Shown in pieces: positions 8,490 to 63,812 of a DNA stretch of 64,000 bases. The first letter of the stretch is position 1. The number at the start of each line of letters is the position of its first letter. The notes beneath the pieces are model-generated. The model was given only the letters and a program-made list of their open reading frames with translations, was not told the origin of the DNA and searched no databases. Origin of the DNA: an uncultured virus (IMG/VR IMGVR_UViG_3300026522_000846) (taxonomy: Duplodnaviria; Heunggongvirae; Uroviricota; Caudoviricetes); IMG/VR virus record IMGVR_UViG_3300026522_000846; one strand, written 5' to 3'. Both the position numbers and the translations under genes were made by a program.

Positions 8490-9689
8490 TTAATCGGAAA
8501 AAAGCTGTTTCAACAATTTCGCCGTATTCGGACAAGCCTGAGGGAACGTATCGGGATGAAGGACATACTCAGTAAACGCTTCCTCAAACCATTGTGCAGA
8601 ATCTGTGGTTTCTGTTGGAACGAATACTTCGCATTCGTTCCTGGGAGTGGATCTGCGATCCACTCCATCTGTCATGGTACTGTCCATTCCGCTGATTTTA
8701 TCAGACTCCGCCATTGTGTTCTGCCAATCAGACTCCTTTGAATACTGTTTTAGGTCATCGATCTGCTTGGCAAATTCCGTCACGATTTCTGTCTGGATAT
8801 GGCTATCGCTTGCTACGGTGTCCTGATCAACATAGATGGTTCTGGACGTGAGGTCAGAACAAACCGTTGCTCCTGTACTTGGCATAGCGTCTGTTGTTAC
8901 GACCTGTATCGAACCGCCTGCGGACTCGAATACTTGCCGTGCAGACTGCGGAATGGTCTGGTAGACCGACTGTACGATCGCATTGGCGTTATTCTTTTTT
9001 TCTTCATCTGCCTTGGCTTTCTCTGCTTCCTCGGCTGCCTTTTGTGCCTCGATCGATGGAATGGATCTGCGATCCATTCCTAGGAACGGTTCTAAAAGAA
9101 CCGTTCCATTCGCTAGTTGACGCTGCCGTTCCTCTTCCTCCTTCTTTGCCTTTTCCTCGGCGGTCTTTCTATTCACGAACGAAGTCAGAAGGTCATTCAG
9201 CGTATTGGCATCCATATACGCACTTTTATACTTTCCCTTTGACATATCGTCTGCGATAGAAGAAACAAGAGTATTCTTTTCCGCAAGGACATCGTTATCG
9301 CTGTAATATCCGTCATCGCTTGGGAATTTGGACAGCGTATTCGCCTTTTCTGCGATACCTTTGGAATTCCGATATGCCCAGAGGATAGAAGAGTAAGCGT
9401 TTATAGGGTCTTTTTTTAACAGTTCTTCATACTTTTGGCTTGCAGAGTCGGACTGTATCGTCTCGGTAAGCAGTAGCTTTCCTGCCTTTTTGAATGCTTC
9501 TTCCTCGGGGTCTGAAAGCCTTGTATATGTGTATGCGGACAGAGGATTTCCCTTCTTAAGCTCTGCCGTCTTTTTCTTCTCGGATTTCTTTGGGTTCGTT
9601 TTATTTGTTAGTGTACCGAGAAACATTCCAAGTGCCAGACACGGCACGATCATTACCGCAATAAGCGTTCTTCTTGTAGTACGCTTCAC
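8490..9689 (-). CDS. Membrane-anchored coiled-coil protein with a degenerate ATLF/Pro-Pro-endopeptidase-like C-terminal domain
   Basis: N-terminal TM; IVTEFAKQID where HExxH would be expected; WFEEAFTEY...CPNTAKLL; two in-frame palindrome insertions. Confidence 0.5.
   Translation of the reverse strand: MKRTTRRTLIAVMIVPCLALGMFLGTLTNKTNPKKSEKKKTAELKKGNPLSAYTYTRLSDPEEEAFKKAGKLLLTETIQSDSASQKYEELLKKDPINAYSSILWAYRNSKGIAEKANTLSKFPSDDGYYSDNDVLAEKNTLVSSIADDMSKGKYKSAYMDANTLNDLLTSFVNRKTAEEKAKKEEEERQRQLANGTVLLEPFLGMDRRSIPSIEAQKAAEEAEKAKADEEKKNNANAIVQSVYQTIPQSARQVFESAGGSIQVVTTDAMPSTGATVCSDLTSRTIYVDQDTVASDSHIQTEIVTEFAKQIDDLKQYSKESDWQNTMAESDKISGMDSTMTDGVDRRSTPRNECEVFVPTETTDSAQWFEEAFTEYVLHPDTFPQACPNTAKLLKQLFSD
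8617..8666. repeat. Palindromic module pair, in-frame in CDS
   Basis: ggaacgaatacttcgcattcgttcc-tg-ggagtggatctgcgatccactcc; encodes GVDRRSTPRNECEVFVP. Confidence 0.9.
9058..9107. repeat. Palindromic module pair, in-frame in CDS
   Basis: ggaatggatctgcgatccattcc-ta-ggaacggttctaaaagaaccgttcc; encodes GTVLLEPFLGMDRRSIP. Confidence 0.9.
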
Positions 9690-12001
9690 TGTTCATCATC
9701 TCCCTTCATCAATACTTCTGCTTCTTCCAGACTCTTGTCACTCATATCCCCGAATATCGCTGAAAGCTGTTTTCTTGTATCCTTTCGTATGTTCGTGTTC
9801 CTGATTTCTCCCATATCCTCGGTAAGGTCGGCTACGAGATCGTTCCTGCTTTGGTCTGTACCTTTGAAAGATTTTGCCTTTTTAAGCACACTGTTTTCTA
9901 TTGCTACGTCTTTTCTATAATCCCTGACCGTATATCCCTTCTGAATGACTTCGTTCGGAAAGTAGTAGGGGAGCGTTTCACTCTCGTGCGGAATAGTAAG
10001 GTCGATTTTCAGCCTTCCCGTTCCTGCTGCTTCGAAATGAGCAGGCTGTTTTCCATTGACCAGGTTCTGCATAACGTCTTTCCAGAGATATGCCGGAGCG
10101 ACCGATGAGATCTGTCCATCCATGCTTTTTGCGTCATCACGCCCCATCCATACAGAAGCGGTGTAGTAAGGCGAGAATCCCGTAAACCAGACATCCTTGG
10201 TACTGTTGGTCGTTCCTGTCTTTCCTGCGGAATCAATATCGCCATCTATCGGTCCCGCTTTCCTTGCCGTACCTTCCGTCAGAACGCCCTTCATAATTTC
10301 TGCCATCTGGTCGACCGTATCACGACCATAGACCTTCACCTCATCAGGTTCTTCATAGATATTGGTGCCGTTCATATCGAGGACGCCTGTAACGCAGGTC
10401 GGGAATCGGTAATATCCCTGATTGGTAAAAGTGCTGTAAGCCGAAGCCATCTCCACAGGATTTGTGCCATAGGTCATGCCACCAAGGGCAGTCGAAAGGG
10501 AATTATCCTCGGGTGAAAGACCGCCAAAATACATTTTCGACAAAGCGTCCATTCCTGACGAAACACCGATCTTGGCAGAGAGCCAGTAGGCAGGACCGTT
10601 CATGGAACGTGTGAGAGCCGTATATAGATCCACAGGAGCACCACCAAGAGCAAGAACATTTTTACTGTGCTTGGCAACAGACACAGTGATGTTGGTGAGT
10701 TTGGAATTTCGGTCATACCCCCTGTCGATAGCGGGAGCGTAGACAAACAACGGTTTCATGGTAGAACCCGGCTGACGGTAGGACTGATAGGAACGGTCAA
10801 ACGAACCGCCGTTTTCCTGTGACCGACCGCCAACTGTGGCGATTATCTTTCCTGAATTGTTGTCATAGACCGCCATCGCTGACTGAACAGAATACAGACC
10901 ATTGTCACCTGTTTTTGTAAATGACGACATCGCCTTATCAAGAGAACCCTGTGCCAGTTGATAAACCGCCGGGTCAATCGCTGTCTGAATGGTGTATCGT
11001 CTATTGTAGAGCCGTTCCTTTGCTTCGGTATAGGCGGTATTATAGGCATTGTCGTATGCCTTTTTCTCGTCATCGGTATTGAATGTCGACTGAAAGGCAA
11101 ATCCGTTTTCCCTCATCAGCTCTTCTACGGCACAATGAATTGCAAAGGACTTCTCCGCAGGACAGGAAGAAGTGCTGAACGCCTTTGCCGATTCCTGTTT
11201 CGGCTGAACTTGGATTGGCTCTTTTTCTGCCTGTTCCTTTTCGGATGCGGTGATAAATCCGCACTCCGCCATATCGTTTAAGATTTTTCGTTGTCTTTTG
11301 ATAGCGTTGTCTTTATTTTTCCACGGATCGTAGTAGGACGGACTGTTCGGGATCGCACAAAGGTAAGCCGTCTCACCGAGCGTCAGGTCTTTGGCAGGTT
11401 TTCCGAAATAGGCATTTGCTGCCTTCTCGATGCCATAGATGTTATTGGCAAAACAGCAGTTATTTATGTAAAAGGTCAGAATGTCGTCTTTGGAATAATG
11501 CTTTGTCAGTTCATAAGCATAGAACATTTCCTTTATTTTTCGCGAGATGGTCTGCTCGGGAGAGAGAAAGGTCATTTTCGCAAGTTGCTGTGTGATCGTA
11601 GACGCACCATGCCGTTCCTTCCCCTTTGTCATCACAAACCGAAGAAGGACTCGCGTCTGCCCTTTGATGTCAACGCCCTTATTCTTATAAAAGGTTCTAT
11701 CCTCAATGGAAATGAATGCCTGCTTTGTCCATTTGGGGATATCTTTTCCATCAAGATAAGTAAAGGTCTTGTATTCGTTCGTTGCAGTACAAAGCACATT
11801 CCCATCCTTATCAAGGATTCGTGATGCCATATCAGGATAGAAGGTATCTTCCGATGACAAGGTGACATCCTTTTTCGCCTGATCCCAGTCCTTTGACAGG
11901 GTGGGGTAGAAAGCAAGGAAGAAGAGCAGAATGCCTACGATTCCAAGTAGGATCAAATATTTAATTAGATTTCCAAAGATAGCAAAGATTTTCTTCATCA
12001 T
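9686..12001 (-). CDS. Class A penicillin-binding protein (transglycosylase/transpeptidase, PBP1A family)
   Basis: SIEDRTFY, GASTITQQLAK, RKIKE; RQPGSTMKP (SxxK), SMN, KTGT; N-terminal TM. Confidence 0.95.
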   Translation of the reverse strand: MMKKIFAIFGNLIKYLILLGIVGILLFFLAFYPTLSKDWDQAKKDVTLSSEDTFYPDMASRILDKDGNVLCTATNEYKTFTYLDGKDIPKWTKQAFISIEDRTFYKNKGVDIKGQTRVLLRFVMTKGKERHGASTITQQLAKMTFLSPEQTISRKIKEMFYAYELTKHYSKDDILTFYINNCCFANNIYGIEKAANAYFGKPAKDLTLGETAYLCAIPNSPSYYDPWKNKDNAIKRQRKILNDMAECGFITASEKEQAEKEPIQVQPKQESAKAFSTSSCPAEKSFAIHCAVEELMRENGFAFQSTFNTDDEKKAYDNAYNTAYTEAKERLYNRRYTIQTAIDPAVYQLAQGSLDKAMSSFTKTGDNGLYSVQSAMAVYDNNSGKIIATVGGRSQENGGSFDRSYQSYRQPGSTMKPLFVYAPAIDRGYDRNSKLTNITVSVAKHSKNVLALGGAPVDLYTALTRSMNGPAYWLSAKIGVSSGMDALSKMYFGGLSPEDNSLSTALGGMTYGTNPVEMASAYSTFTNQGYYRFPTCVTGVLDMNGTNIYEEPDEVKVYGRDTVDQMAEIMKGVLTEGTARKAGPIDGDIDSAGKTGTTNSTKDVWFTGFSPYYTASVWMGRDDAKSMDGQISSVAPAYLWKDVMQNLVNGKQPAHFEAAGTGRLKIDLTIPHESETLPYYFPNEVIQKGYTVRDYRKDVAIENSVLKKAKSFKGTDQSRNDLVADLTEDMGEIRNTNIRKDTRKQLSAIFGDMSDKSLEEAEVLMKGDDEQ

Positions 12002-13173
12002 CGTTCCAACTCCATTTCTGTTTCTTTTTCCTCTGTCATGGACTCTCGGATGGTCGTTAAGAAACATTGAATCTCCTCTCTATCTGTTCCATTGATTTGT
12101 TCGGGCGGTGTTAATGGAAAGGCAAGACCTTCCGACAAAGAGAGGAACCTCTTGGTCGGGATAGAAAGGGTATATTGAATCCGCCTGTCTTTTTTCCATG
12201 TGAATAGTAAATCGCCCAATGGGAATCCGGAAGTTCGACCTTCGGTCTTTAACCCTGACCCTTTGCAAAGCAAAGGCTCAGAGTCGTCCACTTCTTCCTT
12301 TACAGAAAATCCGGGACATCGATTTTGTATTAAGTCACGATATTCTTTGCATAACCGTTCCCGTTCCGCAGTTAAAAAATACTCGGGATGTTGTTCCATC
12401 TGGTAAAGGAAAAGACTTCTCACACGCTCTATCAGATCTTTGGGATAGATTCCGTCACATTTATCTAAAGACATATCCAAATCTTCTAAAGTATATTTGG
12501 TTCGAAACAAAGAACTTACGCCACAAATTTGTTCAATGGCACACACTTGTAATGGATACGTTTTAGAAAAAGGCAAAGAGAAAGCCATATTCGAAATCGC
12601 TTCCATAGAAAGATCCGGGTGCTGTAATAGCTCCTTGGTCATAAAAGAACGACCATTATCAAAGACGATCGGCAGATACCTTCCGTCTGGTTTTTGAAGC
12701 AGGCTAATGTTTCCAAGATTCCGGTCTGTATTTAATACTAACTGGTCAAATTCCAAAAGTTTGCAGAGAAATGTGCTGATGTCATATCCATCGGTTTTCT
12801 CTTTTGCAAGTTGAATGAACTCTCGAATGGTTTGCTCTGTTGGTTGCTCTTTTCGAAGTCGTTCCGGGTCAAAATTTGCCCCATCAATGATGTCCACTCC
12901 CGTGTAGAACCGATCGCCCTCTTCTCGAAAGTTTGGACTTTCGCATCCACGAAATGTAGAAAGACCTGCCTGAATCTGCACAGGTTGATAATGTGCATGA
13001 AGTCCAATGTTTGATTTATCCAAAAGGTCGGAACATATTGTTTCCGCTAACCCTTCGCAACCGCCATACGATTTTTTATCATCTGCTTTATAATATAAGT
13101 CAGTAACCAAATTATGCCATTTGGGTTGTGTACCGCAGAGTGGTAACTTCCACTTCTTACTTACAATTATCAT
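11998..13173 (-). CDS. HipA/CtkA-like kinase
   Basis: GTQPKW...YYKAD, FDQLVLNTDRNLGNI, VFDNGRSF. Confidence 0.8.
   Translation of the reverse strand: MIIVSKKWKLPLCGTQPKWHNLVTDLYYKADDKKSYGGCEGLAETICSDLLDKSNIGLHAHYQPVQIQAGLSTFRGCESPNFREEGDRFYTGVDIIDGANFDPERLRKEQPTEQTIREFIQLAKEKTDGYDISTFLCKLLEFDQLVLNTDRNLGNISLLQKPDGRYLPIVFDNGRSFMTKELLQHPDLSMEAISNMAFSLPFSKTYPLQVCAIEQICGVSSLFRTKYTLEDLDMSLDKCDGIYPKDLIERVRSLFLYQMEQHPEYFLTAERERLCKEYRDLIQNRCPGFSVKEEVDDSEPLLCKGSGLKTEGRTSGFPLGDLLFTWKKDRRIQYTLSIPTKRFLSLSEGLAFPLTPPEQINGTDREEIQCFLTTIRESMTEEKETEMELER
12219..12285. repeat. Second-type palindromic modules, in-frame in the kinase gene
   Basis: gttcgaccttcggtctttaac and tgaccctttgcaaagcaaaggctca; encodes SEPLLCKGSGLKTEGRTS. 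Confidence 0.75.
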
Positions 13174-13523
13174 GATTGATTATCCTCAATAAACTCGATC
13201 CAACAATCGTCTTGTCCTGCACGTCCTTTGAAAAAGCGGACAAGAGCTTCCGGGTCATATTCTTTCAGATGACAATATTTGAGAATGTCATCCAGATCAC
13301 TTCTTCCTCGTGAAAAAGTTCTCCGTTCGAAGAAAGATAAAACATCGTTCCATGTTGGTGATTGTCTAACACCAAACACGGTCGCCATAGGTTCGTTTTG
13401 ATATTTATAATTTTTGTACTTTACTGTCTGCCGATCTGTCGACACCCAAACCTCGGTGATGGGGCTATCGTCATAATCTCGAAAGATGAAATGAATCGGC
13501 TTCTGCTTTTTCTGAAATATCAT
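13170..13523 (-). CDS. HipA N-terminal-domain-like (HipS-like) partner protein
   Basis: FFERRTFSRGRSDLDDIL...EYDP...GR...DDCWIEF; stop overlaps the kinase start (ATGA). Confidence 0.55.
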   Translation of the reverse strand: MIFQKKQKPIHFIFRDYDDSPITEVWVSTDRQTVKYKNYKYQNEPMATVFGVRQSPTWNDVLSFFERRTFSRGRSDLDDILKYCHLKEYDPEALVRFFKGRAGQDDCWIEFIEDNQS

Positions 13524-13538
13524 AAATTTATCCTTTCT

Positions 13539-14078: not shown

Positions 14079-14237
14079 TCCTTTTTTCCTTTTCTGTTTT
14101 TCTGCTTCCTTTTCTTTTTATGAATAAAATCCTAGGAACAATGCAGATTTGAACAAAAAAAGACAAAAAAAATTCCCATTAGGATTGATCTAATGGGAAA
14201 AATATTTGTATTTTCAAAATGTGGTAAATCTGAAGAA

Positions 14238-14966: not shown

Positions 14967-15026
14967 AGTTTTGCTCCTGTTCTTTTTGGCATTATCACTT
15001 TGTTCTACACATACTATGTGTAAAAT

Positions 15027-15244
15027 TAATGGAAAATGGAAAGGATCATAGATGTTCGCTCTACGAGCTTTAACTCTTCGCCTAATGGAAAGGATCGTAG
15101 ATCCTTTCCTAGGAACGATACTACCGTATCGTTCCATTTTGTGAAACAAAGGCTCAGATCCTTTCCTAGGAGTGGATCTGAGTCATCGCGTAGCGATGAC
15201 GAAGAGTTAAAGACTATAAGTCGAACATCAAAGATCCACTCCAT
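15027..15244. repeat. Large nested palindrome cluster (intergenic)
   Basis: Several GGA..TCC hairpins joined by CCTAGG with nested modules; 94 bp identical to 49359-49452 and 69 bp identical to 27456-27524. Confidence 0.95.
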
Positions 15245-15265
15245 GAAATGGGAAGGCAGAAGTCG

Positions 15266-15775
15266 CTATTTGACAATCTTCTTTCGCTTCGGAATTTTTA
15301 CAAGATCTGCTATTGTCATGATACGTCCATACAGATCACCTTCCTCCGCAACGTGTACCAACGTATCATTATCAACAGACATGATCGTGTAGGTTGTATC
15401 AGAGTAGAGCGACCTGACACGATCTCCGACCTGAAACGTTTCCTTTTTCGTCTTTTTCCTTGGAGATGTTCGCGGAGATGTTCGACCTGCGGTCGTTAAC
15501 TCTTCGTTATCGCTCTGCGATAACTCAGATGTTCGTGCTACGGGCGTTGTCGGCTTGGGCGAAGCTGTCGGTTTTTGTGAGTCTGTCACTTTTCGTTTCG
15601 GACGTTTTCGCATTCTTTCATCGATCTTGCCGTTGTTGTGGCAGGTATATGTTACAGACAATTCTTTCGTCAAAAAGTGCAGCACGTTCTTTTCGGCAGA
15701 CAGAACACGAATATCCTTACCGTATTTCTTCTGTGCTGTTTTCAGCATAAGTTCCTGTTTTTCTTTCTGTATCAT
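15266..15775 (-). CDS. Basic hypothetical protein with in-frame repeat module
   Basis: Operonic position; RTSELSQSDNEELTTAGRTS is encoded by palindromes at ~15465-15535. Confidence 0.65.
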   Translation of the reverse strand: MIQKEKQELMLKTAQKKYGKDIRVLSAEKNVLHFLTKELSVTYTCHNNGKIDERMRKRPKRKVTDSQKPTASPKPTTPVARTSELSQSDNEELTTAGRTSPRTSPRKKTKKETFQVGDRVRSLYSDTTYTIMSVDNDTLVHVAEEGDLYGRIMTIADLVKIPKRKKIVK

Positions 15776-15778
15776 CCT

Positions 15779-26709: not shown

Positions 26710-28425
26710 GTGATGTTTGATTTTGATAAATTCTCTGATGTGGATAGCACAACGACATGTTGTAGCAAAAAACCAATTACATATGATAGCAAAAAACCAA
26801 CGATATGTAGTAGCACCATCAGCGATATAAAAAATACCGAAGAGGAAGACGACATGGCTGAAAGCCTTGCCAAGCAGATGGAAGAACTGAACAGAAAGAA
26901 TGAGGAGTCGAACCGGCGTCTTCGGGAACAGGCAGAAGCTGAAAAGCTTAAGAGAGAGAAAGAGGAAGAAGAGCGTGTCCGTGAACTTGAAGCTGCCGTT
27001 GTAAAGCAGAAGATAGATAAAGAAGCGGAAGAGCGGAAAGCGTTCTATGAAGAATTAAAGAGCGAATATGAAAAGGATAAATCCGAGGCTCGCTCTGCGG
27101 AAAAGAAACAGAGCATATTTTCCGCATTTCTCTCACCGAAACAAAAGGCGAACGCCAAACCGACTAATTCTTCCAAAGTTCGTTCTACAAATTCTAAAAA
27201 GCAAAAGGCTTCCAAGTCAGGCGATTTGTTGCCTGACAAAAAGGCAAAGAAACAGACAGATGATCCCTTGAAACGGCTTATACCTTCTGTTCTGAAGAAT
27301 AAATCCGGTGACTCTCCAAATAACTCTGATACTGAAAAAGAGCCTGAAAGCAGGAATGTCGCTGATGAATGGAACGGTTCTGAAAGAACCGTTCCTAGGA
27401 GTGGATCTGAGTTATCGCAGAGCGATAACGAGGGGTTAAAGACCGTAGGTCGAACATCTGAGTCATCGCGTAGCGATGACGAAGAGTTAAAGACTATAAG
27501 TCGAACATCAAAGATCCACTCCATCGAAAAGCCTGAAAGCGAAGAGTTAAAAACTGTTGAGAATACTGTATCGCAGAATGGAGTGGATCACAGATCCACT
27601 TCTAGGAGTGATGCAAAGCATCACTCCATTACCGAGACTGTACCTCAAACCGTATCTCAAAAGGATGAAAGTCCGAAAGACGAAGAGTTAGAGATCGAGA
27701 ATCGAACGCCTGAACCATTACAAACAGATGAACCTTTGCAGAACGAAAGCGAAGAGCCAAAGACTACGCAAACACCTGTTCCAAAAAGCAACTCAATGTT
27801 TGATGTCTTCGGTAGTCTTACGAAGAAGAATGCGAAGAAGCCACCTGTCAAGGCAACAGTCGAAGATAAGCCGAAACTTGGAAAGAAGTACCCTGAAAGA
27901 AACCTTGTGCATGAAAACAAAGAAGAAAAGAAGCTTAAGGAACTTCGGGACAAACTATATCCGGGCAATCTTGAATTAGAGGGTAGCAAAGATAACGAGG
28001 TAGAAGTAAAAACCGAAGAACCCGATGATGACTATCTGGCATGGCAGAAACGGATCGCCGAGAACGAGACCAGATTGAGTGCTGATAAATACCGCAGTAT
28101 GCTTCATGATGTGCAGGAAAGAAGGAATGACGTTGCTGCCATAGCACTCATCACAGCGGATATGAAAAACCTCATCGTAATAAAATCGCTCGATGAGTTC
28201 TTCCAATTCGTGGAAGGCAGGAATTATGACGTAAAGCTTGCTTATGCGTTCGTTGTCTATAAGCACGAAGATCCGCGGTATTACCTCGAAGTACCGAACG
28301 ATCCGCATATACAGGGGATAATGAAGTCGCTCTACGACATGATGATGCACAATTCGGTCATTGTACCGGGTTTGATAGCGAAGATACCGAACATCGGTAT
28401 TTTCGAGAACGTATATTTCAATTAA
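26710..28425 (+). CDS. Coiled-coil/low-complexity protein whose central region is built from palindromic repeat modules
   Basis: 571-aa ORF (alternative start 26854); 27367-27630 encodes WNGSERTVPRSGSELSQSDNEGLKTVGRTSESSRSDDEELKTISRTSKIHS. Confidence 0.7.
   Translation: MMFDFDKFSDVDSTTTCCSKKPITYDSKKPTICSSTISDIKNTEEEDDMAESLAKQMEELNRKNEESNRRLREQAEAEKLKREKEEEERVRELEAAVVKQKIDKEAEERKAFYEELKSEYEKDKSEARSAEKKQSIFSAFLSPKQKANAKPTNSSKVRSTNSKKQKASKSGDLLPDKKAKKQTDDPLKRLIPSVLKNKSGDSPNNSDTEKEPESRNVADEWNGSERTVPRSGSELSQSDNEGLKTVGRTSESSRSDDEELKTISRTSKIHSIEKPESEELKTVENTVSQNGVDHRSTSRSDAKHHSITETVPQTVSQKDESPKDEELEIENRTPEPLQTDEPLQNESEEPKTTQTPVPKSNSMFDVFGSLTKKNAKKPPVKATVEDKPKLGKKYPERNLVHENKEEKKLKELRDKLYPGNLELEGSKDNEVEVKTEEPDDDYLAWQKRIAENETRLSADKYRSMLHDVQERRNDVAAIALITADMKNLIVIKSLDEFFQFVEGRNYDVKLAYAFVVYKHEDPRYYLEVPNDPHIQGIMKSLYDMMMHNSVIVPGLIAKIPNIGIFENVYFN
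27367..27630. repeat. Large nested palindrome cluster, in-frame in CDS
   Basis: ggaacggttctgaaagaaccgttcc-ta-ggagtggatc[four nested modules]gatccactcc; a further pair at ~27578-27630. Confidence 0.95.
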
Positions 28426-29808: not shown

Positions 29809-29843
29809 TAATGGAACGGTTCTAAAAGAGCCGTTCTATTTTT
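29809..29843. repeat. Single palindromic module, positioned as a terminator
   Basis: aatggaacggttctaaaagagccgttctatt followed by T-run. Confidence 0.75.
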
Positions 29844-30969: not shown

Positions 30970-31026
30970 AATGGAGCGAATCGCAGATTCGCTCCTAGGA
31001 ACGATTCCTTTAGAATCGTTCCATTA
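30970..31026. repeat. Palindromic module pair in the 5' leader of the topoisomerase gene
   Basis: aatggagcgaatcgcagattcgctcc-ta-ggaacgattcctttagaatcgttccatt. Confidence 0.9.
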
Positions 31027-34687: not shown

Positions 34688-34975
34688 ATGGTACTTGAAC
34701 TTGACCGTATTGAAGAACTGACAAATGACGGCGTGCTCGACCACAGTATTCTGGACGGCGTAAAAGCCGTTCAGGAGATGATGATAGAGAACGATCGAAG
34801 TGAGAACATTGAGGACGAAACAAGAAATGGAACGAATGTAAAGCATTCGTTCCTAGGAACGAACCAAGGGTTCGTTCCATTAAATGGAACGGTTCTTTCG
34901 GAACCGTTCCTAGGAGTGGATCAAAGATCCACTCCATTAAGCGATATTGAAGAGGAGGAAGCATGGCAGAGATGA
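34688..34975 (+). CDS. Small acidic protein, about 40% encoded by four palindromic modules
   Basis: GAAGGTG RBS; NGTNVKHSFLGTNQGFVPLNGTVLSEPFLGVDQRSTPL. Confidence 0.55.
   Translation: MVLELDRIEELTNDGVLDHSILDGVKAVQEMMIENDRSENIEDETRNGTNVKHSFLGTNQGFVPLNGTVLSEPFLGVDQRSTPLSDIEEEEAWQR
34826..34938. repeat. Four concatenated palindromic modules, in-frame in CDS
   Basis: Two CCTAGG-joined pairs linked by ccattaaatgg; 67 bp is the exact reverse complement of 49448-49514. Confidence 0.95.
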
Positions 34976-37427: not shown

Positions 37428-37483
37428 AATGGAATGAACCAAAGGCTCATTCCTAGGAACGATTCTTTCAGAATCGTTCCATT
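37428..37483. repeat. Palindromic module pair in a 5' leader
   Basis: aatggaatgaaccaaaggctcattcc-ta-ggaacgattctttcagaatcgttccatt. Confidence 0.9.
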
Positions 37484-49293: not shown

Positions 49294-49514
49294 AATGGAA
49301 CGAATGTTTTACATTCGTTCCATTTAATGGAGTGGATCTTTGATGTTCGACTTATAGTCTTTAACTCTTCGCCTAATGGAAAGGATCGTAGATCCTTTCC
49401 TAGGAACGATACTACCGTATCGTTCCATTTTGTGAAACAAAGGCTCAGATCCACTCCTAGGAACGGTTCCGAAAGAACCGTTCCATTTAATGGAACGAAC
49501 CCTTGGTTCGTTCC
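49294..49514. repeat. Large mosaic palindrome cluster (intergenic)
   Basis: At least six GGA..TCC hairpins; blocks identical to 15068-15161, 15200-15244 (reverse complement) and 34856-34922 (reverse complement). Confidence 0.95.
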
Positions 49515-49597
49515 GTATCTGTTCTTTCGAACTGATGTTTTCATCCATATATTGTTCTATCACAAACAGGTGTTCGTGTAAAGGGAAAATATTGCAC

Positions 49598-53622: not shown

Positions 53623-53703
53623 AATGGAGTGATATTTCTGTAGCAAGCGATAAATCGCTTGATACTTCTGTATCACTCCTAGGAGTGGATTACGAATCCA
53701 TTA
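53623..53703. repeat. Nested palindrome pair abutting a stop codon
   Basis: ggagtgata[gtagcaagcgataaatcgcttgatac]tatcactcc-ta-ggagtggattacgaatccatt. Confidence 0.85.
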
Positions 53704-55768: not shown

Positions 55769-55797
55769 ATAGAACGGTTCTAAAAGAACCGTTCTAT
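55769..55797. repeat. Single palindromic module, positioned as a terminator
   Basis: atagaacggttctaaaagaaccgttctat preceded by A-run. Confidence 0.8.
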
Positions 55798-56133: not shown

Positions 56134-56276
56134 AATTTTGATCTCCTTTTTCTTTGTTTGTATAGAAATTTTCTTCTACATCTTAATTATGCGTAAAATT
56201 TACAGAAAACAGTCAACTATAGAGAAAAATTTCATCCCAACCATCATTCCTGATAACGATACGATTCGTTACAACT

Positions 56277-56326
56277 GGAACGGTTTTGAAGGAACCGTTC
56301 CTAGGAGTGAACCAAAGGTTCACTCC
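56277..56326. repeat. Palindromic pair supplying the sigma-factor stop codon
   Basis: ggaacggttttgaaggaaccgttcc-ta-ggagtgaaccaaaggttcactcc; TAG within CCTAGG ends the ORF (WSEPLVHS*). Confidence 0.9.
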
Positions 56327-57128
56327 AATATTCGCCTACAGCCTTCATTTTTTTCAAGGCTTTCTTCTCTATCTGCCTTATCCGTTCACGAGTCAGGTTG
56401 TAAACGTCTGCTACCTGATTAAGAGTCATCTGTTCATAAAAACGTTTTTCCACAACGCTCTTTTCCCTATCGGTCAGTCTTGCCCTTTTCATCATACTCT
56501 CGATAACATTCCGATTCAATACCGTTTCGTATTCTTTATCGACACGCTCGTCAGGAATAAAGTCTCCAAGTGTACTTGTTCCATCTGATTTCTCAAGCAG
56601 AGACTTACCAGTCAGAGACTTATCAGTCGATACCGTCTGCAACGTAGCTGCATCTCTCAAATATGGCACAAGGTTCTTGCTTATGTCAAATGTCTTTGCT
56701 ACATCCTCATCAGTCATATCCCTATACTTTTCAAAATCGGCTCTGTATTTATCTGTTATTTCCCGATACCTTACGGGAACGTAGAGTCCGCATACATCCT
56801 CATTCTGCTTACGCTGTACCGCTCGCATGATCGCGACCGTGACATAGGTAGAAAATTCAGTGTCCTGCTTTTTGTCATACGATTTTGCCGACTTTAGAAG
56901 AACTGCGATAGCTTCGGTCACGGCATCTTCCTTATCCGTGCCATAATAGTATTTATCTACCATGCGACAGATAAGTCCCAGATTTCGGCATATAAGTTCC
57001 GTAGCGTCTTTCCCCGCTTTTACGTCTGCAACCATCTTCGACTGCAAAGTTCTATCGTATATATACTCGGGATATGTATTGTGTAGGTTTTTTACAATGT
57101 CTGTTTCTCTTGCATACATAGTTCTCAT
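56301..57128 (-). CDS. Sigma-70 family RNA polymerase sigma factor
   Basis: NLGLICRMVDKY, DKEDAVTEA...SYD...EFSTYVT (region 2); TLNQVADVYNLTRERIRQIEKKALKKMK (region 4). Confidence 0.9.
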   Translation of the reverse strand: MRTMYARETDIVKNLHNTYPEYIYDRTLQSKMVADVKAGKDATELICRNLGLICRMVDKYYYGTDKEDAVTEAIAVLLKSAKSYDKKQDTEFSTYVTVAIMRAVQRKQNEDVCGLYVPVRYREITDKYRADFEKYRDMTDEDVAKTFDISKNLVPYLRDAATLQTVSTDKSLTGKSLLEKSDGTSTLGDFIPDERVDKEYETVLNRNVIESMMKRARLTDREKSVVEKRFYEQMTLNQVADVYNLTRERIRQIEKKALKKMKAVGEYWSEPLVHS

Positions 57129-57190: not shown

Positions 57191-59650
57191 TTAGTTAGTG
57201 CCATCGCTATATCTTGAACCTTGTCTTATATTCCCATGTTTTACTTTTTCTTTCAGCTCACTGGGTTCACAGGCGAATACCTTAAATATCTCATCAGGAT
57301 TGGTGATTTTAGATATCCTAATAGCATGATTCGGTGTTTCCTGAACATATTTCTGCTGAACGTATCGGCTGATGGGGTATCTGTCATAATCAAACTTCAT
57401 CTTTCCCGATTTTGTATCCTCGGCATAATCAGATGTGTATTTATAGTACGGATGGTCAGGATAGTTGTATTTGTCATCAAGCACAGGATTATGACCTGTT
57501 GAAAGAACAAGCTCCATTCGGTTCGAAAGCCGTCCGATCTGATCGGGTGACATGAGGTCGGATTGTTCCGTCTGCACATTCTGACTTATCTTCTTATTGT
57601 CAACGGACACGCTTGAACCTACCTTGGTGGTCTTTCCGAGTTTAGCAGCAAGCCACTCGACTGTCTCTTTGGCTTTACCGCCAAGGAACACGGTCTGATA
57701 ACATCCTGTATCAATGGTCTCCCAAGTATCCTTATACATTTCCTTCAACTGTGTTACACCCTGTACAATAACATCGCAGGAAATATCATACTTACGAACG
57801 GTAGTAAGTCGTGCAGGGAATGAGGGGATCTTACCGATATTCGCAAACTCATCGAGAAGCATTCGGATATGTGTCGGATTCTTTACCGACTCTCCATCCT
57901 GCTTTACGATCTTTGCCTGTTTCAAGTCTGCAAGATACTGCTCTGCAAGTTCCGCGTCAGGACGACGGCTCACCACTCTGCCCTGATCGTCTATGATCTC
58001 ATAGAAGCAGTCGTCTACCTCCTTATTGACTATGACCTTTTCGATATGGCTGTTCTTAATGCTCTCGACATCCTTTTCGATTGCATCCATATCTGTCCAA
58101 CTCTGGTCGTACCACTTCACCTCTTCACCGTTTTTGAGTCTCAAATGGTGAGTGTTCTGCACCTTATGCTCCCCTCTGTCATAGAGAATGTCGAACATCT
58201 GGGAATAGAGCATGGAGCAAAGGAAGTTATAAGACGAGTTCGACACAGGGATATTGATAAACAGAATGTCACGCCCCGTACCGAAAGTATCAAGGTCGAT
58301 AGAGTCGGTACTGGTGATATTGGCAATATCCTGCACGTTGAAGGCGTCCAGTCGTACCTGTGTCGTTGCAAGGATAGTGTCAGCGGTCTTACCGGGTGTC
58401 GTCTTGAAGTCGCCCCATTTCTTCAGGCAGTACGGATCTATCTTGTTACCATATCCGTCATCGTCCCAGAACTCCTTATGTGTTGCAAGGTTATTGAAGA
58501 TGTGACCGAGGGCAGTCTTATCACTTTCGCTCTTTTCCTGATAAGTCCTGTCATCCCTCCATTTATCATCAAGACGGCGGTTAGTCATTCGTGCTATTTC
58601 GCAGAGGTTCGGGAAGTCTTTCCTGTAAACATATCCGTCCATTATGATAGGATTATCACCATACTTTGTCAGAAGTCCAATGATCGCACAAAGATATGAG
58701 TTCATGGCTGAATCCCAGAAGGGGTCTGCATTACTGTTGCCGTTACTGGTATCAGTATTCGCAATAAAGGTATCAACAAGCGTCTTGATGTCAGCTTCTT
58801 TTCGGCAGTAGTGCATTGGATTATAGGTACTGGTATGATTTTTTGTAGCAATATCGAATATCCTCACGTTATATCCGAACCGATACAGAGTCTCTCCCAT
58901 CTGCTTTACAATGTCGCCTGACGGGTCTGTAACGATATAAGAAGAGTTCATCTGCAAAAGATTCGGCTTAACATATCCACGGGATTTTCCTGTACCGGGT
59001 TCACCGATGACGAGGTTATTGACGTTTGTGATGTCATGGGAAAGGTAACTGATATACATATTCTTGGAAAAGATGTAATTGGATCCGAACTGGGTATGAC
59101 CGGGTTCTCCAAAAGGCTCTGCCATGTTGGTCTCCATCTTCTTTGTGTCGCCCCATTTTGCATTGCCCTTGATACCCTCTTTCCTGTTCTGGAGTCTCGG
59201 CTTTTGAAGCGTATAAAGAAAGAACACCACGAAAACGGCAATAAGGCTTATTCCGAAAGCAGCACCAAGTGCTGAAGCTCCACCGCCATATACCGTATAG
59301 GCACTGTTCCATACAGGCAACTGTTTCAGTCCGGATATGGTCTGAACAGCCTTACAACGGAACGGATAAAACGGTTTGCTTAAAAGGTTCTTTGTCGCAA
59401 GGCTCATTATCTCGTTCGTGGTGGGATCCAATTTACCGTTGAGACTGAACGTGACCTTTGCCGCAGCCCACTGAAGAGAAAGTAAAAGCGACATCACAAA
59501 CATCAAAATTGCACCAATACCATACTGGATTCTTAATTCCCGCTCCTGTTCCTTTAGCGGTTTCTCTCTGCTGAGTTCCGGTGCGTCGGTCGGGTTCTTG
59601 TCCTGAAACGGATTCATAAGCTTAATGGTTTTTTTGAGTTTATCAGACAT
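57191..59650 (-). CDS. virD4: VirD4/TraG-like type IV coupling protein
   Basis: GNAKWG, GEPGTGKSRGYVKPNLLQMNSSYIVTDPSG, DPFWD, LLDEFANIGKIP, VQGVTQLKEMY. Confidence 0.93.
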   Translation of the reverse strand: MSDKLKKTIKLMNPFQDKNPTDAPELSREKPLKEQERELRIQYGIGAILMFVMSLLLSLQWAAAKVTFSLNGKLDPTTNEIMSLATKNLLSKPFYPFRCKAVQTISGLKQLPVWNSAYTVYGGGASALGAAFGISLIAVFVVFFLYTLQKPRLQNRKEGIKGNAKWGDTKKMETNMAEPFGEPGHTQFGSNYIFSKNMYISYLSHDITNVNNLVIGEPGTGKSRGYVKPNLLQMNSSYIVTDPSGDIVKQMGETLYRFGYNVRIFDIATKNHTSTYNPMHYCRKEADIKTLVDTFIANTDTSNGNSNADPFWDSAMNSYLCAIIGLLTKYGDNPIIMDGYVYRKDFPNLCEIARMTNRRLDDKWRDDRTYQEKSESDKTALGHIFNNLATHKEFWDDDGYGNKIDPYCLKKWGDFKTTPGKTADTILATTQVRLDAFNVQDIANITSTDSIDLDTFGTGRDILFINIPVSNSSYNFLCSMLYSQMFDILYDRGEHKVQNTHHLRLKNGEEVKWYDQSWTDMDAIEKDVESIKNSHIEKVIVNKEVDDCFYEIIDDQGRVVSRRPDAELAEQYLADLKQAKIVKQDGESVKNPTHIRMLLDEFANIGKIPSFPARLTTVRKYDISCDVIVQGVTQLKEMYKDTWETIDTGCYQTVFLGGKAKETVEWLAAKLGKTTKVGSSVSVDNKKISQNVQTEQSDLMSPDQIGRLSNRMELVLSTGHNPVLDDKYNYPDHPYYKYTSDYAEDTKSGKMKFDYDRYPISRYVQQKYVQETPNHAIRISKITNPDEIFKVFACEPSELKEKVKHGNIRQGSRYSDGTN

Positions 59651-61791: not shown

Positions 61792-62127
61792 TTATCTTTT
61801 CCTCTTTTTTCTAATGGAATGGATCACAGATCCATTCCTAGGAACGGTAAATTCCAGTTCAGGTCTGTCATCGTCATATTGCAGAACGCCCTGTGCTTCC
61901 AGTTCTTCATGATTCCACATATACCAACAGTCGAAACAAAATCTGTTTTCGTACATCTTCTCGTCACGCGGGATATAGTGTACGAGATACCCTCGCTTTG
62001 CTGCCCTCCGAATGTCAGCAGTATCGTTGCCTGTGTGGTAAAGTATCACACCTGTCTTTTTACTTCCGCAGTTGGGACAGTTTTCCATTCTCTTTGGCAG
62101 AAATCCCAGAATGTCGGAAAGGCTCAT
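61792..62127 (-). CDS. Zinc-ribbon protein with in-frame palindrome at the C-terminus
   Basis: CPNCGS...CFDC; 61813-61850 encodes FTVPRNGSVIHSIR. Confidence 0.7.
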   Translation of the reverse strand: MSLSDILGFLPKRMENCPNCGSKKTGVILYHTGNDTADIRRAAKRGYLVHYIPRDEKMYENRFCFDCWYMWNHEELEAQGVLQYDDDRPELEFTVPRNGSVIHSIRKKRKR

Positions 62128-63626
62128 TCCTGACCACCCTCTTCCTTGTCATTGCTTTCATTATCACCCTGTGACGACTCTTCGTTATCGCTCTGCGATG
62201 ACTCAGATGTCCGACCTTTGGTCTTTGACTCCTCCAGACTTGTTCCATTCAGTGTTGCTGTTACGTCTCCTGAAAATCCCTTCACGATAATGCTGTTCTC
62301 TTTTCCGTCTCCAGTCACGGTTGCCGAGAATGTTACCGAACCGTCATCGTTTGGTGTCTGTTCAAAGGTCAGTCCGCTTATGGGGTTTTTCATCGTTACG
62401 GATCCGTCTCCGTTCGGTACAGTGACCTTGATTTTGTACTTCTTTCCTTTTTTGAGATCCACATCAAAGGCTTTGTCGGAATTCTCCGCAGTTATGGTCT
62501 GACTCTCTTCTTCCGTTTCCTCTGCATTCTCTTCTGTTCTTGCATATCCGAAAGCGTTCGGATCTTTGGTAGAATATGAGTTCAGTGCAGGAACGGTACT
62601 GTAGCAGGCTGTCTCTCCGATAGGCGACTCTGTAGCCTGATTTGTAGCCGAGTCGTATGTTGCATTTACAGATAGCTGCCTTTTATTAAAGTTTTCAGCC
62701 TTGTCTTCATATTTCGTTCCGTGTACGAGTCTGAATACACCGCCAAAGTTCGGAACATAATATCCGTCAGGAAGATAGTCAGGGAGCTTCAGTTCCTGAT
62801 AGACGCTGTTTGCCTTCAGACCTTTTGTATATTCAGCATACAGTTCCATTCCTGAAAAATAATGTGTGTCTGATTTAACATCGAATGTGTGACATTCTGT
62901 ACCTGAATATATATTTACAGGATATGCCCTGTCTTCGGGTGCAGTCTCGCCCGCCTTGGGATCACTCACAAGTACGTCTGACTTTACAAAACCGCCGATG
63001 GAAAGTATGTCGGGCTTTACCTTTACCGCACTCTTGCCTTTTCCGACACTATCAAAGGTGTAGGTCGTTTTTGAGTTATTAAGTGCTGTGGCGATCGCCT
63101 GTGCTGACGAGTTTGGTCTGACATTTGATTTATCACTGGAACTTGATTCACTCGAAAGATTTATCGTATATGTCTTGTTTGCCTGCTCTGTTACGCCGTA
63201 TATTCCGAACGAATAACCCTCATCCTTATATCTCTCGTAATATATCGTATTAATGGGCGTAGTATTGCTCCTGTAGATCAGCTTGTCTTTATCACCGAGA
63301 TATAGCGTGGGAACGGTTTTGTAAGTTTTTGCGTCCATCATGATAAGCCTTGTAGCATTGGTCGAGTTCTCGGCTCTCTTTGTGACATTCGCCTGCACAT
63401 TAAAGCATATCGGATATGCCTTCCCTTTGTGATAAACATAGTAGTTTCCTGCCGTGATCTTTGACAGGTCTACACCTGTATCAGGCTCATCACCCTTATG
63501 TACTTTCATTTCTATTTTCTGCGGTTTGCCCGATGTATTCTTCATCGTTTTCAAGAGTACACTTCCCGCAATAAAAACTACCAGTAAGACAATAATAGGA
63601 ACCTTTAATTTCTGTATAACTTCCAT
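62124..63626 (-). CDS. Membrane-anchored extracellular protein with repeat-derived acidic tail
   Basis: N-terminal TM; tail KGRTSESSQSDNEESSQGDNE encoded by modules at ~62170-62230. Confidence 0.75.
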   Translation of the reverse strand: MEVIQKLKVPIIVLLVVFIAGSVLLKTMKNTSGKPQKIEMKVHKGDEPDTGVDLSKITAGNYYVYHKGKAYPICFNVQANVTKRAENSTNATRLIMMDAKTYKTVPTLYLGDKDKLIYRSNTTPINTIYYERYKDEGYSFGIYGVTEQANKTYTINLSSESSSSDKSNVRPNSSAQAIATALNNSKTTYTFDSVGKGKSAVKVKPDILSIGGFVKSDVLVSDPKAGETAPEDRAYPVNIYSGTECHTFDVKSDTHYFSGMELYAEYTKGLKANSVYQELKLPDYLPDGYYVPNFGGVFRLVHGTKYEDKAENFNKRQLSVNATYDSATNQATESPIGETACYSTVPALNSYSTKDPNAFGYARTEENAEETEEESQTITAENSDKAFDVDLKKGKKYKIKVTVPNGDGSVTMKNPISGLTFEQTPNDDGSVTFSATVTGDGKENSIIVKGFSGDVTATLNGTSLEESKTKGRTSESSQSDNEESSQGDNESNDKEEGGQE

Positions 63627-63668
63627 ACAACACCTCTCTATTTGTTCAAAAAAAATAGACCTGAAAGT

Positions 63669-63812
63669 CGAAACGATATTTCTGTATCAAGCAACTTGTT
63701 GCTTGCTACGGTAGTATCATTTCACCCTTCAAGTCATTTATGAATAAAATGTAAGTGCTGATTTTTTCTAACTGTTAAAGACCGTAGGTCGAACGTCACA
63801 GATCCACTCCAC
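63669..63812. repeat. Palindromic modules flanking a promoter-like motif
   Basis: gaaacgata[gtatcaagcaacttgttgcttgctac]tatcatttc; gttaaagaccgtaggtcgaac...gatccactcc. Confidence 0.8.

Follow-up and report, generated by a model that had tools for sequence, protein, structure and literature searches.

What Are the Nested Palindromes?

The DNA analyzed here (the window, 64,000 nt of a conjugative element from bovine-gut metagenomes, IMG/VR IMGVR_UViG_3300026522_000846) carries many short palindromes, some lying within others, and raises the question of what these repeats are and how they are spread. A preliminary description made from the letters had offered two possibilities, a self-propagating non-autonomous element or structural signals used during conjugative transfer. 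We conclude, with a probability of about 0.72, that the palindromes represent at least two co-resident families (E1 and E2) of ultra-small, non-autonomous mobile DNA elements that are moved in trans.

The E1 Hairpin Modules

The E1 module consists of two 10- to 11-nt arms and a 3- to 5-nt loop, and nothing else. The window holds 27 intact, perfect GGA..TCC hairpins of 23 to 25 nt, some decayed copies, and six modules interrupted by nested inserts (15038-15166, 15169-15242, 27398-27522, 30799-30874, 49329-49457, and 53626-53679). Modules are mostly paired through a TA joint (CCTAGG) and capped by AT..AT, each pair being made of two different hairpins; single modules without CCTAGG exist at 49297, 49492, and 55771. 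With caps, the unit measures 27 to 29 nt when single and 52 to 55 nt when paired. On alignment, the GGA..TCC foot with its AT caps is invariant, giving the ends ATGGARNG and CNYTCCAT, and module flanks read AT..TA or TA..AT in 55 of 75 scanned candidates. An 18-mer junction motif from the window, allowed up to 3 mismatches, occurred 13 times compared with 0.03 expected from shuffles. A covariance model built from 74 modules recovered 27 window sites at 20 to 34.6 bits, each on both strands, and the next match (18.2 bits) is the decayed copy at 29813-29837. No Rfam or other match to the modules was found.

The stems are nearly always perfect. In the covariation set, which admitted at most one stem mismatch and thus inflates the paired fraction, 98.8% of 570 stem cells are paired, with G:U in only 3 of them. 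Covariation was found in 7 of 10 stem pairs and proceeds by Watson-Crick pairs only, with 127 cells changed on both sides versus 36 in shuffles. Composite loci folded as single-stranded DNA gave z scores of -13.5 and -9.1. The dispersed, modular, nested palindromes of the preliminary description are confirmed, together with its stem covariation, its TA (CCTAGG) and ATT(T/A)AAT joints, and its AATGG/CCATT caps; its three examples of nesting (30799-30874, 15168-15242, and 27398-27522) read as it described them.

The E2 Unit and the Nesting Grammar

Each 49-nt E2 unit comprises two hairpins and has no inverted repeats at its termini; the 2-nt repeat on its flanks (AT or TT) is compatible with either a duplication or a cleavage motif. 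The unit ends in a gttaaagac..gtcgaac hairpin, and its other position is taken by gtYatcgc..gcgatRac or tgaRcctttg..caaaggYtca, which had been listed as separate types but share that one position. These hairpins had also been placed inside the loops of the GGA modules; the nested cases are real, but units also occur free and within genes, lying outside loops at 12233-12281, 15480-15550, and 62184-62235. The loci are as follows.

8615..8668, E1 pair (25-nt + 23-nt, joint CCTGGG), in frame in ORF 8490-9689 (-), flanks CTG..CTG
9056..9109, E1 pair, in frame in ORF 8490-9689 (-), flanks TCG..TCG
12233..12281, minus strand, E2, 49-nt two-hairpin unit, within ORF 11998-13173 (-)
15036..15244, composite: module split by a reversed E2 holding an E1 pair, TA, module split by E2
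15480..15550, minus strand, tandem E2 units without outer GGA module, within ORF 15266-15775 (-)
27369..27524, E1 pair, second module with two tandem 51-nt E2 insertions, in ORF 26710-28425 (+)
27578..27629, E1 pair, one mismatch in first module, in ORF 26710-28425 (+)
29813..29837, decayed single module with 2 mismatches in its stem, intergenic, 18.2 bits
30771..30876, E1 pair, second module split by E2, begins 3 nt past the stop of ORF 30117-30767
30971..31024, E1 pair, with 31 nt between it and the downstream TopB start codon
34569..34600, decayed module with widened loop, within ORF 33821-34681
34827..34937, two tandem E1 pairs with TAA between, intergenic, stopping 26 nt short of the ATG at 34963
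37429..37482, E1 pair, with a promoter-like repeat (37352-37413) on one side and the RBS/start (~37499) of a secreted-protein gene on the other
49295..49516, array: single module, nested module-TA-module (its split module holding a reversed E2, which holds an E1 pair), single module; spacers TTA; DNA fold z = -13.5
53624..53702, GGA module whose 36-nt loop has a gtaKcaagc..gcttgMtac hairpin, TA, degenerate module
55769..55797, single variant module with AGA..TCT ends, intergenic
56275..56328, E1 pair that extends into the 3' end of ORF 56301-57128 (-)
61814..61848, intact module + TA + truncated second module, last codons of ORF 61792-62127 (-)
62184..62235, minus strand, E2-like unit, within ORF 62124-63626 (-)
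63684..63812, degraded composite: gtaKcaagc-type hairpin (63684-63709), E2 3' hairpin and lone GGA right arm (63774-63810)

Five interrupted modules each became perfect once their inserts (51, 102, 51, 51, and 30 nt) were cut out, and four of the five restored modules have the sequence of a simple copy elsewhere. Thus, removing 51 nt at 15178-15228 gives the module sequence of 34913-34935, and removing 30813-30863 gives that of the simple copy at 49297-49321. GGA-module loops, which make up about 0.3% of the DNA, hold or adjoin five of some 13 E2 loci. Nesting also runs the other way, a GGA pair lying within a second-set unit at 40146-40232 of a 51.6-kb IMG/VR contig (G001). The nested grammar arises because elements insert in or beside each other's hairpin tips. 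Landing sites are of three kinds: intergenic, in frame in genes, and at or beside the hairpin tips of other elements.

Empty and Filled Sites among Relatives

Comparison of aligned sequences identifies E1 and E2 as insertions gained or lost between close relatives, and the empty and filled sites that had been sought were found in both directions. ORF 8490-9689 has four homologues (P0003 to P0006, with 91, 86, 78, and 77% aligned identity), which were compared as proteins, so that boundaries there were inferred from codons. The pair at 8617-8666 is absent from all four, leaving a 19-residue gap. At 9058-9107, P0004 to P0006 are empty and P0003 has one module, with 10 residues compared with the window's 19. 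In a contig of Logan run X6, 24 diverged letters link 27342 directly to 27526, so that the 159-nt composite (27367-27525) is absent, and the contig is also short of a net 51 nt at 12232-12291 (joint 12231 to 12292), the site of a window E2; each of these joints rests on one Logan contig placed at 80% likeness. Conversely, the window is empty near 21872-21922, where contigs of X2, X3, and X6 have a GGA pair, and near 27686-27732, where X6 and X7 have second-set letters. In the orthologue of 37429..37482 from a Lachnospiraceae metagenome-assembled genome (MAG G002), the first module is decayed and the 27-nt second module (37456-37480) is absent.

The in-frame insertions amount to 19, 19, and 53 codons relative to orthologues. 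Across 33 loci, core+7 is divisible by 3 in 21 (binomial P = 0.00035), and two paralogue-based comparisons fit core+6 nt, not core+7 nt.

Flanking Repeats

With the AT caps counted as part of the element, perfect 3-nt direct repeats flank 13 of 33 delimited loci and are absent from the other 20; the shuffled mean is 2.3, and none of 2,000 shuffles reached 13. The six that lie outside arrays are diverse (CTG, TCG, GAG, GAA, TGA, and GAA). Two of the three orthologue-verified sites have a perfect triplet repeat, and the third matches at 2 of 3 positions. Given the AT..AT caps, E1 ends in TG..CA and is flanked by a 3-bp target duplication, a combination resembling that of the IS3 family. The gain or loss of 27 nt (one module plus TA) falls outside what a 3-bp-duplication model explains.

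Distribution and Search for an Enzyme

Apart from Logan contigs from four runs, each of a different study, the searches located the family only in the window, in G001, and in five contigs of the one Lachnospiraceae MAG, all of them independent assemblies. Copy density is 0.4 to 0.9 per kb on one or two mobile replicons. The host-like MAG (2.1 Mb) has at least 8 sites on its 5 contigs, with 150 of 1,030 candidates scored. Of 401 Lachnospiraceae genomes, 13 contained the junction motif, a rate similar to that of its reversed control, and among 12 genomes from the genus, 1 had covariance-model matches. Modules are absent from 42 loci (477 kb) around TopB relatives with 28 to 65% identity (one at 65%, the others at 28 to 34%). 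G001 has the same module and pair types as the window, yet no gene or protein in common with it. Its in-frame copies lie in DnaE, a C5-methylase, and a membrane protein, and those of the window lie in a secreted protein and a disordered linker. The repeats also break short-read assemblies of these replicons, contigs ending at repeats, and they produce spurious or extended ORF calls.

The impression that the window has no visible transposase was borne out by a Pfam scan, which found no transposase family among its 86 ORFs (56 + 30). As for the linked HUH/RAYT nuclease that had been suggested as worth seeking, a Y1 transposase (PF01797, E = 2.8e-42) is encoded on G001 together with three TnpB genes, but no Y1 gene was found in the window or in MAG G002, which is incomplete. 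An E2 3' hairpin copy lies 184 nt upstream of the G001 tnpA, which is not flanked by GGA modules, the nearest being 2 to 2.5 kb away. A search of the MAG for the rve family (PF00665) turned up a single insertion sequence, whose ends are unrelated, and a single match below threshold that has neither inverted ends nor module-like termini. No parent insertion sequence with E1 ends was found in the window, G001, or the MAG, the host genome not being closed.

Mechanism and Alternative Explanations

The self-propagating, non-autonomous element is the possibility that gained support, from presence and absence in both directions, flanking repeats, stem covariation, and the lack of a transposase in the window. 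For mobilization in trans of these structure-dependent mini-transposons, we favor a staggered-cut transposase. E1 and E2 would be copied by an enzyme encoded outside the window that may recognize the conserved hairpin foot (ATGGARNG / CNYTCCAT) and require intrastrand pairing of the hairpin, a requirement that would yield perfect Watson-Crick covariation. The enzyme would cut with a 2- to 3-nt stagger, preferring extruded hairpins. A DDE-type transposase is the favored candidate for E1, but a sequence-reading DDE transposase is insufficient by itself to account for compensatory changes over some 25 stem variants. The frame-keeping sizes (27, 30, 51, and 57 nt) may reflect selection for tolerated elements in a gene-dense replicon. 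A fuller version is offered tentatively. In it, at least three to five hairpin mini-elements of 27 to 57 nt that nest in one another would have specialized in colonizing a mobile replicon, entering its coding sequence in frame, and the enzyme would read only the hairpin foot and integrate at extruded tips with a 2- to 3-nt stagger. To our knowledge, no described transposon family covers foot-only recognition together with tip integration; the ends and duplication are DDE-like and the substrate need is HUH-like.

Movement as single-stranded DNA by a Y1/HUH transposase of the RAYT or IS200/IS605 type, without true target duplication, would suit the hairpin-dependent covariation, the tip and loop targeting, and the build of E2, which has a pair of hairpins and lacks terminal inverted repeats. 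The Y1 and TnpB genes of G001, with an E2 hairpin near tnpA, point the same way, as do REP dimers on record within palindromes and ORFs (excerpts of PMC3733652). We nevertheless consider it unlikely. The E1 flanking triplets vary between sites and are duplicated, unlike a Y1 product, the foot has no GTAG or CGTC tag, and a Y1 gene was found neither in the window nor in MAG G002, that of G001 being unflanked by GGA modules. E1 has perfect stems; TnpA-REP, by contrast, depended on non-complementary bases in the stem and left a perfected palindrome uncleaved, according to excerpts of PMC3333891.

That the hairpins are kept mainly for a function of the replicon, as terminators, as stem-loops that stabilize mRNA at its 5' or 3' end, or as single-strand signals for transfer or for replication, with spread secondary, appears improbable. 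About 10 of 15 GGA loci do lie between genes or at gene ends in a window that is 88% ORF; several are just past a stop codon or 19 to 33 nt before a start codon, and the copy at 56275..56328 provides the stop codon of ORF 56301-57128 (56301-56303, the TAG of its CCTAGG joint). However, in-frame copies occur in unrelated ORFs of the window and G001, copies vary between close relatives, and the surroundings of the 42 TopB relatives have none, so the conjugative-transfer signals first proposed as the second possibility found no support. The scarcity of G:U pairs is ill suited to selection at the RNA level, and most copies have no following T-run. Sites for a dimeric DNA-binding protein, or for a site-specific recombinase acting at the CCTAGG joint and mixing modules by recombination, would agree with the perfect dyad symmetry, the central TA in a conserved 8-nt palindrome, and pair types that recur yet are re-assorted. 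We regard this as very improbable: a protein reading the arms would not enforce compensatory changes at variable positions, no protein is common to the window and G001, some single modules lack CCTAGG, and recombination among some 15 dispersed sites would scramble the replicon. Selection as peptide modules, with DNA symmetry a by-product, is scarcely credible, and assembly artefacts equally so. E2 in ORFs does take an orientation and frame that nearly always encode a 17-residue hydrophilic peptide, but GGA loci are mostly non-coding, one and the same module is read in more than one frame, and perfect palindromy with varying loops is a property of DNA; artefacts are opposed by the family's recurrence in independent assemblies.

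If the mobile-element reading is right, these are among the smallest bacterial mobile DNA units documented with nucleotide-level insertion evidence, and a plasmid-like replicon can host a layer of parasites of its own, which introduce short peptide segments into genes. As a natural experiment the set is unusually clean: recent insertions are numerous, public bovine-gut data contain both empty and filled alleles, and several element types target each other's hairpin tips. It could be used for finding the responsible enzyme and for asking how hairpin extrusion directs integration.

Comparison with Known Systems

The small dispersed repeats of cyanobacteria (SDR; Elhai et al. 2008) are reportedly 21- to 27-nt mobile hairpin repeats that nest in one another and have no known enzyme; they are said to differ from the window elements in taxon, chromosomal location, and sequence. 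The short palindromic repeats of Volvox carteri organelles occupy only organellar, non-coding DNA, with one sequence family per compartment, and neither target duplication nor in-frame insertion is described for them. Palindrome-associated elements derived from IS200/IS605 have two subterminal hairpins, neither inverted terminal repeats nor a target duplication, and a Y1 transposase in the same genome. E2, the only unit compared with them, has two hairpins without inverted ends, its AT/TT flanks may be either a duplication or a cleavage motif, and G001 alone carries a Y1 gene.

A close likeness is with REP, BIME, and REPIN sequences, the partners of RAYT (TnpA-REP) transposases, which excerpts of PMC3333891, PMC3733652, and PMC3116915 describe the repeats as non-autonomous 20- to 40-nt palindromes, mostly in pairs or arrays of several types, with some copies inside ORFs or palindromes and some giving TAG stops. 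The earlier opinion that no known analogue mixes and nests modules was too strong, since BIMEs are mosaics of several REP types (excerpts of PMC3333891) and REP dimers lie within other palindromes and ORFs (excerpts of PMC3733652). The REP tag, however, is a GTAG or CGTC tetranucleotide at the hairpin foot (excerpts of PMC3333891 and PMC3733652), and the window modules lack it, GTAG appearing only by chance in some loops. Window stems are perfect and G:T pairs in them very rare, where those of REPs are imperfect. A window pair joins hairpins unrelated in sequence, directly abutted by TA, with a 3-nt target duplication, and the elements are concentrated on one or two mobile replicons rather than chromosome-wide, with no RAYT gene nearby.

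REP hairpins are themselves targeted by transposases of the IS3, IS110, IS4, IS256, and IS5 families (excerpts of PMC1525189), and the choice of palindromes by IS1397, ISKpn1, IS621, and ISPpu9 parallels the tip targeting seen here. Those four are full insertion sequences of about 1 to 1.5 kb with their own transposase, whereas no partner with matching ends was found for the window elements. Bacterial MITEs (Correia, RUP, ERIC, and others) are likewise non-coding and mobilized in trans, with terminal inverted repeats, a short target duplication, and occasional in-frame fusion to genes (excerpts of PMC10969869). E1 has such repeats and duplication but lies outside the MITE size range: MITEs are 70 to 300 bp with 15- to 30-bp inverted repeats (excerpts of PMC3733652), whereas the entire window element is 27 to 57 nt and its arms covary. 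Rickettsia palindromic elements (RPEs) are palindromic repeats in frame in unrelated protein genes, to which they add a peptide segment; at about 100 to 150 bp, they are chromosomal elements of an obligate intracellular alphaproteobacterium, and the excerpts of PMC10969869 report no nesting or pairing grammar for them. The window elements share in-frame insertion in functional protein genes with RPEs and differ in size (27 to 57 nt) and sequence family. They are best read as a variant of the REP/MITE/RPE kind, in which nesting itself has precedents.

Structure and covariation of the hairpin modules

The palindromes of the preliminary description are real: exact-stem scans list them, and all three of its example loci match what was said of them. 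A junction 18-mer, searched with a tolerance of 3 mismatches, is present 13 times where 0.03 occurrences would be expected. The covariance-model scan that had been proposed, run with a model trained on 74 modules, yields 27 sites in the window at 20 to 34.6 bits, each on both strands; a gap follows, and then a decayed copy (29813-29837) at 18.2 bits. Six additional modules are split by nested inserts. When folded as single-stranded DNA and compared with shuffles, 49292-49517 gave z = -13.5 and 27366-27527 gave z = -9.1.

The basic module of the first set, E1, is a perfect 10- to 11-bp stem that starts with GGA, finishes with TCC, and encloses a loop of 3 to 5 nt. Among 75 scanned candidates, one of which was dropped afterwards, lengths of 23, 24, and 25 nt were represented 38, 10, and 27 times, and 55 had AT..TA or TA..AT flanks. 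The majority of modules are paired via TA, with the pair preceded and trailed by AT; because these AT caps border the pair, the E1 unit ends in TG..CA. The usual pair joins a 25-nt GGAACG-type module to a 23-nt module of a different type, pair types recur, and arrays consist of pairs or singles spaced by TAA or TTA. Joints of CCCGGG or CCTGGG in place of CCTAGG were also seen, CCCGGG on contig C42 of a Lachnospiraceae metagenome-assembled genome (MAG), G002, and the others at 18877-18880 of the IMG/VR contig G001 and at 8641-8644 of the window.

Pairing holds in 98.8% of 570 stem cells (57 distinct rows), a fraction inflated because the set was limited to modules with at most 1 mismatch. That limit does not account for the compensatory changes between stem types. 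Seven of the 10 pairs covary, changes on both sides affect 127 cells compared with 36 in shuffles, and sliding the partner by one column lowers pairing to 40 to 56%. Loops vary freely within one stem type. With only 3 G:U cells, the pairing is Watson-Crick only, which favours DNA (one or the other strand, or a cruciform) over RNA as the paired form.

About 60 nt long and 88 to 90% conserved, a promoter-like repeat directly adjoins module pairs at four positions; it could be a portable promoter, or else one more repeat family travelling with the hairpins.
37352-37413, window, promoter-like repeat
995-1056 and 2560-2618, G002 contig C12, promoter-like repeat
1377-1439, G002 contig C61, promoter-like repeat

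Empty and filled sites in relatives

Empty and filled orthologous sites, the comparison suggested in the preliminary description, were found among relatives, with presence and absence in both directions. Four homologues of the protein encoded by ORF 8490-9689 (P0003 to P0006) are 91, 86, 78, and 77% identical to it over the aligned regions. At the protein level, the site at 9058-9107 has 19 additional residues in the window, 10 (one module) in P0003, and none in P0004 to P0006, and the site at 8617-8666 has 19 residues in the window that none of the four share. Since it is the more distant homologues that are empty, the state with hairpins is derived. A MAG contig 85 to 92% identical to 36986-39784 carries a decayed first module, lacks the 27-nt second module (37456-37480), and, past the gene's terminator, has a pair that is absent from the window.

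Logan contigs from four metagenome runs were compared over 8400-28399; two bovine-gut runs hold 0.88 of the sampled words and the remaining two hold 0.16 to 0.18. Most of these contigs end at module loci and most loci are unbridged, so that uncovered parts count neither way. At 80% likeness, one contig from run X6 joins 27342 to 27526 across 24 diverged letters and therefore lacks 159 nt, the whole composite; it also lacks a net 51 nt at 12232-12291, which is the second unit, E2. Each of these joints is seen in a single contig. Conversely, and again at 80% likeness, a GGA pair is present near 21872-21922 in contigs from X2, X3, and X6, and second-set letters near 27686-27732 in those from X6 and X7, both places being empty in the window. 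Module borders in the four runs also have many loose ends, which indicate further module contexts in those samples. Contig ends at modules were seen, for example, at 9080, 15097, 15501, and 27397 (X2, X3, X6, and X7), and the repeats thus fragment short-read assemblies of this replicon. Contigs of X6 and X7 skip 33 nt at 17865-17897 (the joint is ambiguous by 4 nt), an in-frame indel that has nothing to do with the hairpin families.

With TopB as bait, 42 loci (477 kb) in metagenome contigs contained no family modules and hence gave no empty/filled comparison; one TopB relative was 65% identical with upstream sequence that was not syntenic, and the others were about 30% identical. A G001 membrane protein used as bait in IMG/VR matched only itself, and its homologues (39 and 37% identity, best local alignment) are too distant for fixing boundaries.

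Flanking duplications

Manual delimitation gave 33 composite loci, of which 15 are in the window and 18 in G001; loci with degenerate boundaries were left aside (for example, window 53626 and 61816, and about eight G001 loci). If the AT caps are assigned to the element, identical triplets flank 13 of the 33 loci, whereas shuffles average 2.3 and none of 2,000 reach 13. Seven of these triplets are TAA or TTA within or beside arrays, and the other six are diverse (CTG, TCG, GAG, GAA, TGA, and GAA). At three orthologue-verified sites the insert measures the core plus 7 nt, with triplet matches of 3/3, 3/3, and 2/3, and the single module of P0003 accounts for 30 nt (23+4+3). Two paralogue comparisons instead fit the core plus 6 nt, and the stagger may therefore be 2 to 3 nt.

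The E2 unit and mutual nesting

The second set of palindromes is mainly one 49-nt unit, E2, in which a 12-bp hairpin is followed by an imperfect gttaaagac..gtcgaac hairpin. The 12-bp hairpin has two covarying versions, previously listed as the gtYatcgc and tgaRcctttg types. The second set had been placed inside the loops of the first; it does lie there, but not exclusively.
12233-12281, 15480-15550, and 62184-62235, E2 alone or in tandem inside ORFs

By our count, five of about 13 E2 loci lie in or at a GGA loop; such loops make up about 0.3% of the sequence. At four window loci E2 sits just inside the GATC at the top of a stem with AT on each side, and at one it sits in a T-loop with TT on each side. 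Cutting 51 nt out of 15169-15242, 102 nt out of 27398-27522, or 51 nt out of 30799-30874 leaves perfect modules, identical to the simple copies at 34913-34935 and 49297-49321. Likewise in G001, removal of 51 nt gives back a perfect 23-nt module, and removal of 30 nt gives back a sequence identical to a simple copy (G001 18880-18904). G001 also has an E1 pair located within an E2, and nesting therefore runs in both directions. Two more small hairpin types were seen, as inserts of 33 nt (window 53626-53679) and 30 nt (G001 22468-22522).

Gene context and reading frame

About 10 of 15 E1 loci in the window are intergenic or at gene ends, several of them just past a stop codon or 19 to 33 nt ahead of a start codon. 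ORF 56301-57128 (minus strand), which encodes a sigma-70 region-4 protein, takes its stop codon (56301-56303) from the TAG of a CCTAGG joint, and the insertion has therefore rewritten the C terminus of that protein. Within ORFs, the copies lengthen linker-like regions by hydrophilic segments. Inserts measure 27, 30, 33, 51, 54, 57, and 159 nt, the canonical 25+2+23 pair giving 57 nt, and the core plus 7 nt is divisible by three at 21 of the 33 loci (P = 0.00035). We interpret this size bias as selection, in a replicon dense with genes, for sizes that leave the frame intact; ORFs cover 88% of the window in our own ORF set.

The replicon and the distribution of the family

The window is a Firmicutes-type conjugative element, with the following Pfam-supported features.
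24601-25647, MobV relaxase
31055-33094, TopB
57191-59650, coupling protein
16809-20527 and 42638-48033, two clusters with seven ORFs for pentapeptide-repeat proteins
1125-8251, defence/anti-defence gene cluster

Pfam also identified a class A penicillin-binding protein in addition to the many pentapeptide-repeat proteins. The cluster at 1125-8251 includes a SocA/Panacea antitoxin domain, a dCTP-deaminase-like protein, Dam-like and EcoRI-like adenine methylases, a CAP12/Pycsar-type TIR protein, and GmrSD-HNH, and it contains no hairpin modules. Rfam at the gathering threshold and a tRNA scan gave no matches in the window.

Megablast of 10 kb of the window against PLSDB and a 113-nt two-pair query against PLSDB and INPHARED gave no match, and IMG/VR pattern scans (one junction, one module, and one second-set pattern) found nothing besides G001. 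That 51.6-kb contig has about 46 sites and shares no proteins with the window except module-encoded stretches; it encodes ParA, an actin-like protein, helicases, DnaE, RecJ, a C5-methylase, three TnpB proteins, and one Y1 transposase. Contig C12 of G002 is 75% similar to the window and 95.6% similar to G001, so G001 may be a different portion of this kind of replicon and not an unrelated element.

Among candidates scored, the 2.1-Mb G002, from an uncultured Lachnospiraceae bacterium, has at least 8 sites on 5 contigs. On C42, the CCCGGG pair (L198:1502-1551) has a GH36 melibiase gene on one side and a SIR2-family gene on the other; the contig spans at least 28 kb, and the pair may be a chromosomal copy. 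The junction motif occurs in 13 of 401 sampled Lachnospiraceae genomes, with a reversed control about as frequent. Among the 150 first-look candidates scored per genome, one of 12 genomes from the genus of the MAG had model matches, and model R1 matched in 0 of 5 genomes with junction matches. A degenerate junction pattern gave 120 loci in genome contigs, with a real module only in L039, a Lachnospiraceae MAG, and chance matches elsewhere. Full-text literature searches with four module 10-mers returned only unrelated cloning or shRNA oligonucleotides, and we found no paper describing this hairpin family.

Possible mechanism and comparison with known systems

The elements insert, are flanked by short duplications, keep a conserved foot beneath covarying stems, and target hairpin tips. 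They would be mobilised in trans by an enzyme that requires the folded hairpin and cuts its target with a 2- to 3-nt stagger. Gain or loss of 27 nt (one module plus TA) could arise by slippage between repeated GGA triplets or by gene conversion from another pair. TG..CA ends with a 3-bp duplication are reminiscent of DDE transposases, the IS3 family for example. A single-strand HUH enzyme would suit the covariation and the tip targeting better, and E2 resembles a two-hairpin IS200/IS605 derivative. REP hairpins are known targets of insertion sequences of five families (PMC1525189).

Pfam found no transposase among the window ORFs, the Y1 (RAYT) type included; G001 does have one Y1 transposase, and a copy of the E2 3' hairpin (G001 37511-37531) lies 184 nt upstream of its gene.
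37715-38206, G001 (L139:17715-18203), IS200-type Y1 transposase (tnpA)
21010-22170, 28681-29829, and 36226-37353, G001, three TnpB genes

Analysis of insertion sequence ends around the three G001 tnpB genes defined no element boundaries. In the window and G001, the only distant inverted arm pairs were chance matches of 8 to 10 nt. In G002, no Y1 gene was found, and a search for an autonomous parent of the rve family (PF00665) gave one insertion sequence with unrelated ends and a second, subthreshold match without inverted ends or module-like termini. These searches of the window, G001, and G002 found no partner enzyme. The family is of interest to researchers of mobile DNA, mainly because the enzyme and integration at hairpin tips can now be tested.

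The hairpin family works like REP/BIME, MITEs, and Rickettsia palindromic elements (RPEs) but misses defining features of each. Compared with REP/BIME, it has no GTAG or CGTC tag, its stems are perfect, it has no flanking RAYT, and it is not chromosome-wide; it is far smaller than MITE size and is not RPE-sized. Nesting and mosaicism have precedents, the cyanobacterial small dispersed repeats (SDR) reportedly among them.
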